Assembly: GCA_000165345.1 (NCBI GenBank)
Contig: CM000436.1
Span: 672,001 to 736,000 of the forward strand
DNA: 64,000 nucleotides
Direction: 5' to 3'
The notes under the pieces are model-generated. The model did no database searches. It was not told the origin of the DNA and was given only the letters and a program-made list of their open reading frames with translations. The position numbers and the translations under genes were made by a program. Shown here piece after piece: positions 34,324 to 40,376 of this stretch; the first letter of the stretch is position 1; each line of letters begins with the position of its first letter.

Positions 34324-36420
34324 ATGGGTTTTAATATTTTTTTTCTTGGGATTTGTATCTCAATATTAATATTCTCCATAAGCGGCGTAAAATGTAGATT
34401 ATACTATGAAGATAATTTACTTGTTACTGATGAAGAATACGATGTAATTATTATTGGAGCAGGAGTTTCAGGCTGTTCAATGGCTAATGTTTATGCTAAT
34501 AATGGGAAAAAGGTTCTCCTTTTAGAAAGAGGTGGGCCAAGAGAGAAACATCCAAAAACCTTATTGACAAAGGGAGCTCCAGGAGTAATCACAGATGAAT
34601 CTATAAGTGAAGCTATTACGACATCAAACGGAACTCTGATGAATGTTGCAAACATTGTTGGAGGTGGGGCCAGTATTAATGGAGGATTTTATGTTGAACC
34701 ATCTACAGAATTTATGCGCAAAACTATTGAAAGCAGCGGTGCTACGTTTGATCAAGAGAAATACCTAAATGCAAAGGAAATTATTCGTAACTCAGGTATT
34801 TTAAACACCGACAACCGTCTCGAAGATAACACTTTTCCAAAAGCAATGTTTGAGGCTATGAAAAATATTAAAGAGTACTCTGGAAATGTTAGCGAAGTTC
34901 CTATTTATTATCCTGAAGGAAGTAATACATTTGTTACTGTTTCCCAGTTTAACGAAACAAATAGGTCATCAGCAGATATTCTTCTTTCTCATGAAAATAT
35001 AAAAATTTACCCCTATGCAGTTGTAGAATCCATACAGTTTAACACGACGGATGAAAACCGTGATCCGTATAGCTTAAAAAAGAAAGTAACTGCTCAATGC
35101 ATTTTGGGAAGAATGAGGTCCGAAAGTGATGGTTTTGTAAGTGTAAGTTCTGGAATGACACATAGAACTATTTATAACAATAATGGCCCTAAGTTCAAAA
35201 TTTGTCTCAATAAACCTGATTCATTTATCGTTCTTGCTTCAGGTGCTATTTACAGTCCTGCGATACTTATGAAAAGTGGTATTGGCCCAACTGAAGTTCT
35301 TAGAAAGCATGGCATTCCTCCAATTAAAATTCTAGAACAAGTTGGTAAAAATTATCATGATCATTTACAATTCGGTTTGTTTGGAATTTTGAAAGAAAAG
35401 CAGCCTATGTCTATTCAAAAAGTATATAGTTATAGCAATTGTTCAAAATATTATCCAGATCCTCCTAATATTTATGATGAACTCAGTCTATTCCACCATA
35501 AGGAGTCTGAACAAAAAAATGGTAGTTCAACTCTTTCTAAAAATTCGTTTGATTTACTACTAGAACCAATTTTAAGTAACCCCGAATCGCCATTGTTTGT
35601 TCCACCGGAACCAACTGGGCCACAATACGAAGATGGAAATTGCTACTCTACAATACTGAACGAAGTTTCTGGAGAATTGTGGATTCCTTTTGCAATATCT
35701 CAAATAATTTATAGAAAGTCTAAAGTTTTAATGAATCCTCTCTTGAATTATCTTTCTCTTTCACTTAGGACCAAAATTCTTAATGCTTTGGAAAGCAATA
35801 ATACAAGAATTTCTGATGATGGTTTTAATAAAATGTTACAGCCTATGAATGATTGTTTTGAAAATGGATCAGCCGCATTATCCTTCCTTACAATACCAAA
35901 GAGTAGAGGATCAATCACTCTAGACGAGATGGGACTCCCAGAAATTAATAGTTCAGACTTTTCAGATCCCATGGATGTTGAGGCAGCAATTGTTGGAATG
36001 AAACACTTAATTCAAGTAATGACTTCACAAAGTGTCTCCTCAATTCTTGAGAGTGAATTGAACTCATGTATCGCATCTATTAGAAATATTTGGGATTCTT
36101 TCCCATTGTTTGGAGGAATCAACGAGAATAATGTTATTGGATTTTCTTCAAGAGAACAAAATGTACCAGCTCTTATTCCCCCTCTACCGAAGATTATAAA
36201 TGATAAAACAGCATTTGATATGGTTAAGGAGTCTTACTCAACAATTTGGCACCCAACCGGTACCTGTTCATTAGGTTCTGTTGTTGATAGTGATTTTAAC
36301 GTGAGAGGGACTACAAATTTGAAAATAGGTGATGCATCTATTTTCCCCGAAGTTTCAGATGTAAGCCCACTTGGATCAGTATTTCTTTTGGCAACGTATA
36401 TTGCTTTAGTAACATCTTAA
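34324..36420 (+). CDS. Secreted GMC-family FAD oxidoreductase (choline dehydrogenase / glucose oxidase / aryl-alcohol oxidase superfamily) with an N-terminal signal peptide.
   Basis: Signal-like N-terminus MGFNIFFLGICISILIFSISGVKC. FAD Rossmann motif DVIIIGAGVSGCSMA...KVLLLERGG. GGGASINGGFY matches the GMC GGGSSIN motif. The C-terminal active-site region WHPTGTCSLGSVVDSDFNVRGTTNLKIGDASIFP matches the GMC H..GTC..G...D..V.G...L.VVDASVMP. The first ATG is at 34324. Confidence 0.8.
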   Translation: MGFNIFFLGICISILIFSISGVKCRLYYEDNLLVTDEEYDVIIIGAGVSGCSMANVYANNGKKVLLLERGGPREKHPKTLLTKGAPGVITDESISEAITTSNGTLMNVANIVGGGASINGGFYVEPSTEFMRKTIESSGATFDQEKYLNAKEIIRNSGILNTDNRLEDNTFPKAMFEAMKNIKEYSGNVSEVPIYYPEGSNTFVTVSQFNETNRSSADILLSHENIKIYPYAVVESIQFNTTDENRDPYSLKKKVTAQCILGRMRSESDGFVSVSSGMTHRTIYNNNGPKFKICLNKPDSFIVLASGAIYSPAILMKSGIGPTEVLRKHGIPPIKILEQVGKNYHDHLQFGLFGILKEKQPMSIQKVYSYSNCSKYYPDPPNIYDELSLFHHKESEQKNGSSTLSKNSFDLLLEPILSNPESPLFVPPEPTGPQYEDGNCYSTILNEVSGELWIPFAISQIIYRKSKVLMNPLLNYLSLSLRTKILNALESNNTRISDDGFNKMLQPMNDCFENGSAALSFLTIPKSRGSITLDEMGLPEINSSDFSDPMDVEAAIVGMKHLIQVMTSQSVSSILESELNSCIASIRNIWDSFPLFGGINENNVIGFSSREQNVPALIPPLPKIINDKTAFDMVKESYSTIWHPTGTCSLGSVVDSDFNVRGTTNLKIGDASIFPEVSDVSPLGSVFLLATYIALVTS

Positions 36421-36665
36421 CAAAAAGTTATTCTTGATATATTAGTTAATGCATTGTAATGAAACAAACATATCTTTTATTTAACAAAAATAATTATTGA
36501 TTTCTTCTTTAAGTTTAATTATTTGATTAATAATATTAGATATTTGCTGATGCAAAATTTTGATATTTTTTTGATATTTTAGATCCTTCCCTCGTGCATT
36601 ACTCGAAAAACGCAATTTCAATAACAAAAATATTCCAACAAAACAAAAATTTACTTATTAGAAAA

Positions 36666-38107: not shown

Positions 38108-38624
38108 TTTTATTGATGTTTATTACCATTTTTTTAATTATAACTAAAATGAAAAGTATCTTACCATCTTTATTACAAATTTTTAGTTCGGCGGTTTGGA
38201 AATCAAAATATAATTTTGATTTATTGATCCTAAATGTGTTTTATTCTTAACGAAAGATGTTAGTAATAAGGAATTATCCGAACCAAAAGGAAATAAATAT
38301 AAAAGCAGTGATTTACTATCTTATCAAAAATTAAAATAATAAAATATTACAAGCCTTTTTAATATTCAGGGTATTTTTACTTGATTAGCATGTAATTTGC
38401 ATGCAAACTAATTAGATTTTAATGAAATTAAATTATGATTTTAGAAATAAAACAAGCAAAAAAATAAATTAAAACTTTAAGATTTTAACTTATTCGTATT
38501 TTATTTGAAAAATAAAAATGTTTTGAAGGCGCTGTAATATAATTCAGTTAAAATTAAAACTAAATGAATTTGTAAATAGGTTAATCAAAGAGATAAGATA
38601 TGATTTTGGAGATTGCTCATAAAT

Positions 38625-40376
38625 ATGGGTGTTATAAAAAGAACTCAGGTATTGATTGTTGGGATGGGCCCCGTAGGTATGACATTAAGCAATTTGCTTA
38701 ATTTATATAAAGTCGACAATATTATTGTTGACAAATTGACACAATTTTCGCCTATTCCAAAAGCCCACTACATTTCAAATCGCTCAATGGAGATATTTAG
38801 ATTCTGTAACAACTTAGATCAAGAAATATATAGGCTTCAACAACCTTTAGAATTTTGGAGAAGAATAACTTATCTAACTTATTTTAATAACTGCAAATTT
38901 GGTATTTTAGGAACTAAAGATGAATTCAGTAATTATAAGACAATTAATGGTTACTACTTAGATTTGGATAGCCAATCAGGAGTGGCAAATTATGATCAAA
39001 GCAAACTAAATAATTTATTGTACAAAAATTTGAAACAGTGTAAATATTCGCAGATAATGCTTGGAACATCTTGGAAAGGATATGAATTTGTTTCTAAAAG
39101 TGGAAAAGAAAAGGTAATTTCAAAGTTAGAGAAATCAAATTCAAATTTGGAATTTACTATAGAGAGCGATTTTTTAGTGGGAGCGGATGGAGCAAAGAGC
39201 CAGGTAAGGAAAGCTTTAAATAAAAATTTTAAAGGGCATGAATCTCTTCAAAAACTTCTAAATATTAATTTTATCTCAAAAGATTTGGCAAAAGTTTGTC
39301 TGGAACTCAAGCAAGAAATTATTGATGAGTGTAATAATATTAAATTAGTTCCCACCACAAGTATGTTATACTTTATTCTAAATCCAAGTTTAATAGGCGT
39401 AATGGTACTTCACGATATTAGTCAAGGCAACTTCGTGATCCATATTCCTTTAGTTGGTTCAAGCTCCGAGAAATTTGATTTAGATTTTTTTAAGCATATT
39501 TTCCCAAGTTTAATTAGCCAAGTATGCAAGAAAAACATTAATTTAGAGGTAAAATCTATTGAAACATGGAATATGTCAGCTCAAGTACTTGATTCGTTTG
39601 TTGATGAAAAAACAAATCGAATAGTTTTAATAGGAGATTCTGCTCATAGACTTCCCCCATCTGGAGGATTTGGGATGAATTTAGGAATTCAAGATTCCCT
39701 TAACTTAGCATGGAGATTAGCATTTGTATTAAAAAACAAATACGAAGAAGATATTAAAAAACAATTGAATGAGTTTAACATGGAGAGAATCCAACATGCG
39801 CAATATGCCTGTAATAACTCTATTCGGAATTTTTATAGGTCCCTATTTATTCCTAAAGCTATCGGATTGGACTGGAAAATAATATCTAGTATGCAGAAGT
39901 TAATATCTAATGCCGATAAATATATTCCTAATAAAATTTTAGAAGAGAAACCAGTCATGGATTACATTTATAAGTTAGGAATGTTTAGATTTTCAAAAAT
40001 ACTAAGGAATGAAAATAAAATGGAAAAGATAAAGATGCTTATTCAGGTTAGTTTAGTACTCCAGCTATATTAATATAAAACACTTTTTTAGGGATATATT
40101 AATTCAAGGGAAAATTCTTTATCTATCAACTTCAAAGGTCTTGATCTTGCATATGCATATAACTTTAATGCAGGAAATACAAAAGCATCTTTTGTGGCTC
40201 CAAAATCGCCGTTTAATTATTCCCCAAATACTTTACTAGGAATGAGAATCCCTCATGAATATGTTTATTTTCAAAGCCTAGATAAAATATTCAGAATCTC
40301 AACAGTAGACATTCCAATTGTATTTTCAGAAAGAGAGCCAAAGAATGTAATACTGATGTTTAGTGAAAAAAGGTAA
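38625..40376 (+). CDS. PheA/TfdB-type FAD-dependent aromatic-ring monooxygenase (FAD_binding_3 family), about 572 aa. It has two exons (38625..40046 and 40092..40376) separated by a 45-nt intron.
   Basis: N-terminal Rossmann motif VLIVGMGPVGMTLSNLL. Flavin signature [30 protein letters not shown] matches GDAAH..P..GQG.N.G..DA.NLAWKLA. A CAG|GTTAGT donor lies at 40047 and a ttttttAG acceptor ends at 40091. The 45-nt intron keeps the frame. Exon 2 encodes the conserved C-terminal region APKSPFNYSPNTLLGMRIPHEYVYF, matching AP..P.Y.P....G.R.PH.WL of phenol hydroxylases. Confidence 0.7.

Follow-up and report, generated by a model that had tools for sequence, protein, structure and literature searches.

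A block of five genes in Cryptosporidium DNA, at positions 34324..42316 of a 64,000-nucleotide window (GenBank assembly GCA_000165345.1, contig CM000436.1, positions 672,001 to 736,000 of the forward strand; the window means this whole stretch throughout), includes two unrelated flavoenzyme genes that are, with a probability of about 0.8, vertically inherited members of one conserved block: (i) a hydroxylase of the CoqF family, and (ii) a predicted secreted, plant-type oxidoreductase of the GMC family. The window is gene-dense, has a GC content of ~30%, and encodes proteins that are 99.8-100% identical to Cryptosporidium parvum entries. An earlier interpretation made from the letters of the window (hereafter, the sequence-only reading) had taken both enzymes for candidate acquisitions of bacterial or fungal type that are unusual in a reduced parasite and whose substrates could be aromatic or derived from tyrosine, for example in cross-linking of the wall.

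The hydroxylase is a member of the CoqF family

The hydroxylase has the hallmarks of the class A flavoprotein monooxygenases. It matches the Pfam domain FAD_binding_3 with about 191-192 bits, and the fingerprints of the class (G13/G15/G18, D188-G189 and G337-D338...G354-D357) fall in invariant or near-invariant alignment columns. The sequence motif that the sequence-only reading quoted for this protein is present. The ~190 residues that follow the flavin adenine dinucleotide (FAD) domain are encoded by exons 2-3 and include the family-wide G-x-R-x-PH and RPDGH motifs. The closest solved proteins by sequence are PieE, HbpA and their relatives (5.6e-67 to about 1e-62), and a model of the C. andersoni ortholog (pTM 0.80, with low confidence at residues 604-702) aligns over ~730 columns to PieE and HbpA with target-normalised TM-scores of 0.72-0.74. 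PieE is the closest solved structure and hydroxylates the ubiquinone-like ring of piericidin; its entry (6u0p) is labelled '2,4-dichlorophenol 6-monooxygenase' in the PDB sequence file. Thus, the description of the protein in the sequence-only reading as a PheA/TfdB-type FAD hydroxylase with a C-terminal motif is right at the superfamily level. A search of NCBIfam added nothing.

The nearest relatives of the hydroxylase are not the bacterial or fungal proteins that had been expected. In the first homology search, eukaryotic matches lay well ahead of bacterial ones: 7.8e-66 for Vitrella, 4.9e-54 for a ciliate and 4e-34 for a stramenopile, with the best bacterial-type matches at ~1e-31. A family profile, built with the C. 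andersoni ortholog as first sequence and searched exhaustively against 1.84 billion representatives, gave scores above 390 bits for at least 150 full-length clusters. The clusters that could be named are plant 'putative polyketide hydroxylases' (one of them from Sesamum, 712 residues), Marchantia, Chloropicon, Chlamydomonas, Chromera, Besnoitia, Theileria equi, the gregarine Digyalum and metagenome-assembled genomes of Desulfobacterales. Eukaryotic members score 617-784 bits against a family profile, whereas the bacterial-type matches, which carry a Rng_hyd_C domain, score at most 300 bits. The neighbor-joining tree unites Cryptosporidium with Vitrella, Chromera, Besnoitia, Theileria and Digyalum; in the full set, the ciliate Stylonychia joins next, followed by Desulfobacterales, which is the topology published for the Toxoplasma homolog TgCoqFMO (PMC13369981). 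The Desulfobacterales step is not recovered in the reduced bootstrap set (23%). Bootstrap values are 100% for Cryptosporidium, 97.5% for the separation of CoqF-like from TfdB-like proteins and 53% for the apicomplexan and chromerid clade.

The characterized members of this family act in ubiquinone synthesis. Plant CoqF (At1g24340) is an FAD monooxygenase of 709 residues that acts at C6 of the ubiquinone ring, is annotated as polyketide-hydroxylase-related and has a C-terminal thioredoxin-like domain (PMC8559556; PMC8654299). TgCoqFMO performs both the C5 and the C6 steps (PMC13369981), and T. gondii is reported to have no identifiable homolog of Coq6, Coq7 or Coq9. In PMC8654299, C. parvum is already listed with CoqF in place of Coq7. 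Thus, the 'phenol hydroxylase' that seemed unusual for a reduced parasite is best regarded as the normal apicomplexan ubiquinone hydroxylase and standard replacement of Coq7, not an exotic acquisition.

By descent and pathway association, the window protein is regarded as a CoqF ortholog, with a putative regiospecificity and location. With NAD(P)H and O2 as co-substrates, the enzyme would hydroxylate the benzoquinone ring of a ubiquinone precursor, in place of the di-iron Coq7. In C. parvum, the CoqF enzyme would supply ubiquinone to the malate:quinone oxidoreductase, NDH2 and mitosomal alternative oxidase (AOX) of a proposed alternative electron-transport chain. The substrate, the ring positions that are hydroxylated and a mitosomal site of action are the predicted parts of this scheme; family membership, apicomplexan ancestry and the loss of the gene together with the ubiquinone and AOX pathway are observed.

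The hydroxylase gene is lost in step with the ubiquinone pathway

The state of the hydroxylase gene was compared at the syntenic site in seven species, including that of the window, and ranges from intact, through a pseudogene and a short relic, to complete absence (Table 1). Loss of AOX and of ubiquinone synthesis is reported for C. ubiquitum, C. felis and C. ryanae, the three species with a decayed or deleted hydroxylase, and retention of both is reported for C. parvum, C. hominis, C. meleagridis, chipmunk genotype I, C. muris and C. andersoni. The hydroxylase matches of the first homology search (parvum, chipmunk, canis and andersoni) agree with this reported split. By contrast, the GMC and reductase genes that flank the site are intact in every species examined. 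C. parvum and C. canis, which keep the hydroxylase, presumably branch after C. felis and the C. ryanae group, and this branching order suggests at least three independent losses of CoqF. The three states of decay suggest separate losses of differing age, in parallel with the reported loss of AOX and ubiquinone synthesis.

Such a joint loss links the hydroxylase to ubiquinone metabolism, whatever the ring position on which the enzyme acts. A locus that is intact, decaying or deleted in step with the ubiquinone pathway is a natural experiment and provides independent genomic support for the function assigned to apicomplexan CoqF. A role of the hydroxylase in tyrosine or wall chemistry is argued against, because the species that lack it still, as members of the genus, form oocysts. 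Likewise, the GMC enzyme and CoqF are functionally independent rather than a working pair, because GMC persists wherever CoqF has been lost.

The GMC enzyme is secreted by prediction and plant-type in its relatives

Both GMC domains of Pfam are found above their cut-offs in the oxidoreductase (GMC_oxred_N, about 45 bits with a cut-off of 23; GMC_oxred_C, 80.5 bits with a cut-off of 24.6). The FAD-binding motif GxGxxG is at residues 45-50, within DVIIIGAGVSGC at residues 40-51, and the N-terminus MGFNIFFLGICISILIFSISGVKC has a hydropathy of 2.1-2.4 in the first 15-residue windows. The family and the signal peptide proposed in the sequence-only reading are thus upheld. All GMC orthologs of the genus have a hydrophobic N-terminus followed by a conserved C-RLYY, and public records name them 'secreted' or 'signal peptide-containing'. 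These orthologs are 695-701 residues long in C. ubiquitum, C. canis, C. felis, C. xiaoi, C. ryanae and C. serpentis, and the gene is also found in C. andersoni. GMC is present in all seven species in which the block was examined and exceeds every other gene of the block in conservation, whichever species is compared (91, 87, 82, 76, 58 and 59% amino acid identity in six species).

The active site is intact at the position of the catalytic histidine. His643 (...STIWHPTGTC...) is equivalent to His502 of AAO and is preceded by a Trp, as in the Trp486-His487 pair of the spruce glycerol oxidase PaAOX1. The second active-site residue is Ser681 (FPEVSDVSPLGSV, codon 36364..36366), which is conserved in 7/7 Cryptosporidium orthologs. 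A segment of ~165 residues (residues ~355-520, about 35386..35883) is conserved in the genus and absent from most other aligned GMC enzymes. An AF2 model of the protein is of moderate quality (pTM 0.71, mean pLDDT 63.6), with the insert at residues 358-453 below a pLDDT of 50. Foldseek matches this model with a probability of 1.00 to plant hydroxynitrile lyases and PaAOX1 at target-normalised TM-scores of 0.70-0.74.

The relationships of the GMC enzyme rest on score rankings and not on tree placement. Among solved structures, PaAOX1 is the closest by sequence (2.2e-30), followed by the Prunus hydroxynitrile lyases. Outside the genus, the best matches are plant HOTHEAD-like proteins (~1e-23), a 601-residue protein from a sequencing-run assembly (P0015) and an Eimeria mitis 'oxidoreductase' (P0017, 1.7e-15), with bacterial, fungal and insect GMC enzymes ranking after at ~1e-11. 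A Cryptosporidium GMC profile gives a shallow gradient: 110.7 bits for P0015, 86-107 for plants (6/7 at 99-107), 83.5 for Eimeria and 75-90 for metagenomic and bacterial proteins. A neighbor-joining tree based on BLOSUM distances places Cryptosporidium, Eimeria and P0015 beside the plants. Thus, the GMC enzyme appears plant-type and, as far as can be seen, eukaryotic, with no sign of a bacterial or fungal donor.

The substrate of the GMC enzyme, its activity as an oxidase or a dehydrogenase, its stage of expression and its role are matters of prediction. The most likely reaction of the enzyme would be oxidation of an alcohol group, either extracellularly or in the secretory pathway, with electrons passed to O2 or to another acceptor. 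In Eimeria, a GMC transcript (ETH_00033360) is published as strongly up-regulated in gametocytes, and EnOXIO1 of E. necatrix is located to the wall-forming bodies. By analogy with these gametocyte and wall-forming-body enzymes, a role of the Cryptosporidium GMC enzyme in building of the oocyst wall is plausible. Unlike those of Eimeria, the walls of Cryptosporidium are not known to contain tyrosine-rich GAM proteins.

The proposal that both genes were transferred from bacteria or fungi, and that an H2O2-producing oxidase and a phenol hydroxylase jointly cross-link the oocyst wall via aromatic or tyrosine substrates, is highly improbable. Bacteria and fungi are well represented in the wider families, and gametocyte oxidoreductases of Eimeria are used in wall formation. 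Published work also argues that the CoqF family derives ultimately from bacterial TfdB-like monooxygenases and that the alveolate sequences group with Desulfobacteria, a grouping obtained here in the full-set tree only. However, the hydroxylase has two spliceosomal introns and falls inside a eukaryotic, vertically inherited alveolate clade, and the best matches of the GMC enzyme, whose tree has low bootstrap values, are plants and a coccidian rather than bacteria or fungi. In addition, the hydroxylase is lost in at least three lineages that keep GMC and, as genus members, make oocysts, and these losses track the ubiquinone pathway. Any transfer would predate the common ancestor of apicomplexans and chromerids.

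Other parts of the sequence-only reading hold for both genes. The codon composition matches that of the neighboring genes, with G+C at third codon positions of 0.24 (GMC) and 0.25 (hydroxylase) compared to 0.21-0.34 in the other genes compared, and codon-frequency correlations of 0.91 and 0.93, respectively. This native codon use, the spliceosomal introns of the hydroxylase and a gene order shared from gastric to intestinal Cryptosporidium support the view that the genes are ancient and not contamination.

Divergent residues and alternative activities

Several observations weigh against the assignments made above. For the hydroxylase, these are: (i) the bootstrap value of the alveolate (apicomplexan and chromerid) clade, at ~53%, (ii) Ile81 of C. 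parvum, C. canis and C. andersoni at the position of AtCoqF Phe121, which is Phe in 140/154 family members, (iii) Leu252 at the position of AtCoqF Phe283, a column with F 87, Y 46, L 9 and M 7 in the family (the position is mapped via the Sesamum ortholog with a +1 offset and is slightly uncertain, with Phe250 two residues earlier in the window protein), and (iv) an N-terminus with no extension, as the GxGxxG motif starts at residue 13 (MGVIKRTQVLIVGMGPVG in the window, MNKQLLKRVPVLIIG in C. andersoni). A mitosomal location is not supported by the sequence, although an internal targeting signal is possible. For the GMC enzyme, these are: (i) Ser681, at a position where characterized enzymes have His or Asn (AAO His546, PaAOX1 Asn525 and hydroxynitrile lyase His497), (ii) bootstrap values below 25% with Kimura distances, some of which are saturated, (iii) the low quality of the Eimeria mitis model, which is poorly aligned at its C-terminus and groups with Cryptosporidium at a bootstrap of 15-21%, and (iv) literature searches on the Cryptosporidium GMC gene, in which no expression or localization data were found.

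The two replaced phenylalanines are, with His88, the three functional CoqF residues defined in PMC8654299, where the two phenylalanines are said to be specific to functional CoqF and where 12 representative species were tested for complementation of E. coli ΔubiF. The catalytic His88 of AtCoqF (His48 of HbpA) is kept as His48 in the window protein, in a column that is His in 145/160 aligned sequences. The protein of Besnoitia, which is Toxoplasma-like, has Met at the position of Phe283. The signature positions may, thus, be less strictly kept in apicomplexan CoqF proteins than the published logo implies, and CoqF orthologs do not all have the two signature phenylalanines.

A CoqF of altered specificity in Cryptosporidium, which acts at both C5 and C6 as does TgCoqFMO or on another quinone or phenol, is possible though doubtful. 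It would account for the Ile and Leu that stand in place of Phe in the substrate pocket, as well as for the missing presequence, and it fits the replacement of both phenylalanines in every Cryptosporidium sequence, the Met of Besnoitia at the second position, the lack of an N-terminal extension, the bifunctional nature of TgCoqFMO, and the missing Coq6, Coq7 and Coq9 homologs of T. gondii. By contrast, the substitutions are conservative and hydrophobic, and the gene is linked to the ubiquinone pathway by its loss along with AOX and ubiquinone synthesis. Many mitosomal proteins are without a recognizable presequence. The reading of the hydroxylase as a CoqF of the ubiquinone pathway is thus preferred.

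It is unlikely that the GMC enzyme is other than a conventional oxidase, either with a changed chemistry as in the plant hydroxynitrile lyases or as an FAD-binding structural or wall protein. The invariance of Ser681 in 7 orthologs, set against the His or Asn of characterized enzymes, would fit such a change, as would the closest folds, which include hydroxynitrile lyases that lost oxidase activity, and the insert modelled at a pLDDT below 50. However, the strictly conserved His643 is intact, as are the Trp before it and the FAD-binding motif, Ser can still donate a hydrogen bond, and the very high conservation suits an enzyme. Thus, the GMC protein is preferably regarded as a secreted oxidoreductase.

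Gene models and neighbors in the block

The features of the block and the state of the hydroxylase site in other species are listed in Table 1. The order of GMC, secreted protein, zf-HIT, hydroxylase, reductase, M16 peptidase and SET/bromodomain genes is kept in the gastric species C. andersoni and C. serpentis, in C. canis and in the window.

Table 1. Features of the five-gene block, in window coordinates unless a locus is named, and state of the syntenic hydroxylase site in other Cryptosporidium species.
Feature	Position	Strand	Description
GMC-family FAD oxidoreductase, secreted (predicted)	34324..36420	+	698 residues, no intron; open reading frame, Pfam and orthologs
Predicted signal peptide of GMC enzyme	34324..34395	+	residues 1-24, MGFNIFFLGICISILIFSISGVKC; putative cleavage site
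Secreted (predicted) 298-residue protein	36666..37562	+	hydrophobic N-terminus, no Pfam match
zf-HIT zinc-finger protein	37571..38107	-	178 residues; divergent to hydroxylase gene
CoqF/CoqFMO-type FAD monooxygenase, whole gene	38625..40712	+	three exons, 664 residues
CoqF exon 1	38625..40046	+	residues 1-474; GxGxxG 13-18, DG 188-189, GD 337-357, putative catalytic His48
CoqF intron 1	40047..40091	+	45 nt, GTTAGT...TTTTAG; predicted from sequence and orthologs
CoqF exon 2	40092..40372	+	carries G-x-R-x-PH motif
CoqF intron 2	40373..40420	+	48 nt, GTAAGC...AATTAG; in-intron stop 40374..40376
CoqF exon 3	40421..40712	+	C-terminal part of thioredoxin-like domain, ends ...FFEIRPDGHIKNIGC, stop 40710..40712
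Adrenodoxin-reductase (Arh1/FprA) homolog	40709..42316	-	535 residues; tail to tail with CoqF; PDB sequence matches, weak Pfam
Hydroxylase site in C. andersoni, C. serpentis, C. canis and window			intact at syntenic site
Hydroxylase site in C. ubiquitum	L001 14153..16420		pseudogene in 2.6-kb gap without called gene; 74% nucleotide identity, at least 11 frameshifting indels, 19 in-frame stops
Hydroxylase site in C. felis	L002 5135..5990		856-nt gap; 56-codon relic of last exon left
Hydroxylase site in C. ryanae	L003 13295..13748		454-nt gap; hydroxylase remnant absent

The hydroxylase gene is longer than the sequence-only reading had it, as the end at 40376 that was proposed is a stop codon within intron 2. 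From the ATG at 38625, a long open reading frame runs to 40073, and removal of two GT..AG introns continues the frame to 664 residues. This three-exon model is supported because exon 3 is matched in other species: the 738-residue ortholog of C. andersoni aligns with the exon 3 product to the very end, and in C. canis and C. serpentis tblastn recovers these three pieces, each in a frame of its own. The RPDGH motif of exon 3 is conserved family-wide. The public C. parvum model of 568 residues (P0066, ending MFSEKR) stops at a TAA within intron 2 and appears truncated, without the 97-codon last exon that encodes RPDGH; the models of C. canis (574 residues) and the chipmunk genotype (547 residues) look truncated likewise. 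The corrected model is a by-product of the analysis. Codons 81 and 252, at the signature phenylalanine positions, are at 38865..38867 and 39378..39380 of the window. Codon 135 (39027..39029) differs between the window (LYKNLKQ) and P0066 (LYTNLKQ), and the window is, by this comparison, from a different isolate than the source of P0066 or from a very close relative.

A Cys-poor, N-glycosylated secreted protein and a zf-HIT gene had been noted between the two flavoenzymes, and both are borne out. The 298-residue protein has 0 Cys and 17 N-x-S/T sequons (predicted N-glycosylation). It is fast-evolving and syntenic across the genus, with an identity of 57% in C. ubiquitum (91% for GMC in the same species) and 25% in C. 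andersoni; in C. ryanae no similarity was detected, though a 285-residue gene is called at the same position. The zf-HIT call is a Pfam match (PF04438, E 2.9e-4, 20.9 bits) that falls under the gathering cut-off of 24.7 bits. Its orthologs are at the matching position in C. ubiquitum, C. canis, C. serpentis and C. andersoni, while tblastn and profile searches found no match in the syntenic gaps of C. felis and C. ryanae, the only parts of these genomes that were searched. zf-HIT is not beside CoqF in Vitrella, Besnoitia or Theileria (profile E >0.1). A palindromic octamer, TGCATGCA, is located between zf-HIT and CoqF at 38398..38405, 220 nt upstream of the CoqF ATG; its two copies in the window are no more than expected by chance (20/100 shuffles reach 2).

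A third flavoenzyme, absent from the sequence-only reading, is the adrenodoxin-reductase homolog at 40709..42316, which overlaps the stop codon of the hydroxylase. Its N-terminal FAD/NADPH region (~150 residues) matches adrenodoxin reductase (1cjc, 2.2e-22) and FprA (5e-22) among PDB sequences, and its Pfam matches (Pyr_redox_2/NAD_binding) are weak. The coding regions of the reductase (-) and CoqF (+) converge and overlap by 3 nt (40709..40711), with overlapping stop codons; therefore, the 3' untranslated regions must overlap completely. This tail-to-tail arrangement holds across the genus, and the reductase is kept in every species examined. Because it is kept in species without CoqF, a core role other than the supply of CoqF is indicated, and most simply the protein would be the reductase of mitosomal iron-sulfur cluster assembly. 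In Toxoplasma, Arh1 has been proposed to donate electrons to TgCoqFMO and is published as proximity-labelled with the ubiquinone complex; by analogy, the Cryptosporidium homolog may additionally feed CoqF. A dedicated Arh1 donor marked by conserved adjacency was considered and rejected, as the 531-residue gene downstream of CoqF in Theileria equi is dissimilar and Besnoitia has a helicase at this site. The adjacency of CoqF and the reductase is probably genus-specific and incidental.

Linkage of GMC and CoqF outside the genus

A GMC gene is also found near a CoqF-like gene in the chromerid Vitrella brassicaformis. On CDMY01000286.1 (L007 1..13285), a 781-residue GMC gene is ~8 kb upstream of the CoqF-like gene and on the same strand. 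The C-terminus of this protein, read at the 3' end of the gene, is plant HOTHEAD-like (...VGTWHWTG..., ...RLNVQATYVMVGRYCGL), with Asn as the second catalytic residue, and scores best against P0015, then the Cryptosporidium GMC and then plants. The genes between GMC and CoqF in Vitrella differ from those of Cryptosporidium, and none is zf-HIT. The linkage was not found in Theileria or Besnoitia, and the probability that it arises by chance in Vitrella is ~0.05 after allowing for ~12 comparisons.

An ancient and meaningful linkage, in which the two genes were neighbors in the ancestor of chromerids and apicomplexans via a green-lineage donor or selected co-location, is decidedly unlikely. The Vitrella arrangement and its HOTHEAD-like C-terminus would agree with such a linkage, as would the block order that is fixed across the whole genus and the Chromera GMC gene, which was earlier scored in published work as of 'green' origin. 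Against this, the intervening genes differ, the linkage is absent in Theileria and Besnoitia, the chance probability is ~0.05, the Vitrella GMC gene was read at its 3' end only, and the two genes are not functionally coupled, as species that have lost CoqF retain GMC. An extended version is more improbable still: that the neighborhood is a relic of the chromerid/apicomplexan ancestor (by joint entry on a single piece of donor DNA or by co-location under selection over hundreds of millions of years) and that the GMC enzyme, with its His-Ser pair and 165-residue insert, is a new catalytic variant for the oocyst wall. The preferred reading is, thus, that of two unrelated genes inherited vertically in one block.

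Implications

The presence of CoqF in C. parvum is already published and both genes are annotated, so the novelty of the assignments is low. CoqF is absent from the host and has been proposed as a drug target, but its value as a target in C. parvum is tempered, because AOX and NDH2 are reported to be dispensable in this species. What remains of interest is the secreted GMC enzyme, with its high conservation, together with a possible ancient linkage of GMC to CoqF. The GMC enzyme is predicted to be secreted, is absent from the host and is uncharacterized in Cryptosporidium; it would be a transmission-blocking target if it acts in formation of the oocyst wall.

Comparison with known systems

The hydroxylase is most like the CoqF and TgCoqFMO proteins (e.g., At1g24340/EMB2421, TGGT1_232540 and Plasmodium PF3D7_0815300), with which it shares family membership by profile score and tree, a class A FAD domain joined to a thioredoxin-like C-terminal domain of ~190 residues, and the equivalent of His88. 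It differs from these in the Ile and Leu that replace the two signature phenylalanines and in the lack of a targeting extension, as an additional 22-48 residues are present in the plant proteins and the protein of Besnoitia is 1189 residues long. UbiF, UbiH, UbiI and Coq6, by contrast, are without the C-terminal thioredoxin-like domain (~200 residues) of CoqF. The three-domain class A layout is common to the window protein and to TfdB, HbpA and PieE. However, TfdB and HbpA form a separate 'cluster II' that does not complement ΔubiF (PMC8654299); the window protein is set apart from the TfdB-like proteins with 97.5% bootstrap and scores ~400 bits higher than TfdB, HbpA and PieE against the eukaryotic family profile. 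The neighboring reductase resembles bovine AdR, yeast Arh1 and FprA of Mycobacterium tuberculosis in its N-terminal FAD/NADPH region.

The GMC enzyme finds its best sequence and fold matches among the plant AA3/GMC enzymes (HOTHEAD-like proteins, PaAOX1 8S2Y and the Prunus hydroxynitrile lyases), with the FAD motif and the Trp-His position kept. The plant enzymes are secreted and glycosylated, as is predicted for the Cryptosporidium GMC. By contrast, the identity to these proteins is ~25%, and the Cryptosporidium enzyme has Ser681 in place of Asn525 (PaAOX1) or His497 (hydroxynitrile lyase) and the additional ~165-residue segment. The gametocyte GMC enzymes of Eimeria are likewise apicomplexan members of the GMC family and are linked to the biology of the macrogamete and the oocyst wall.

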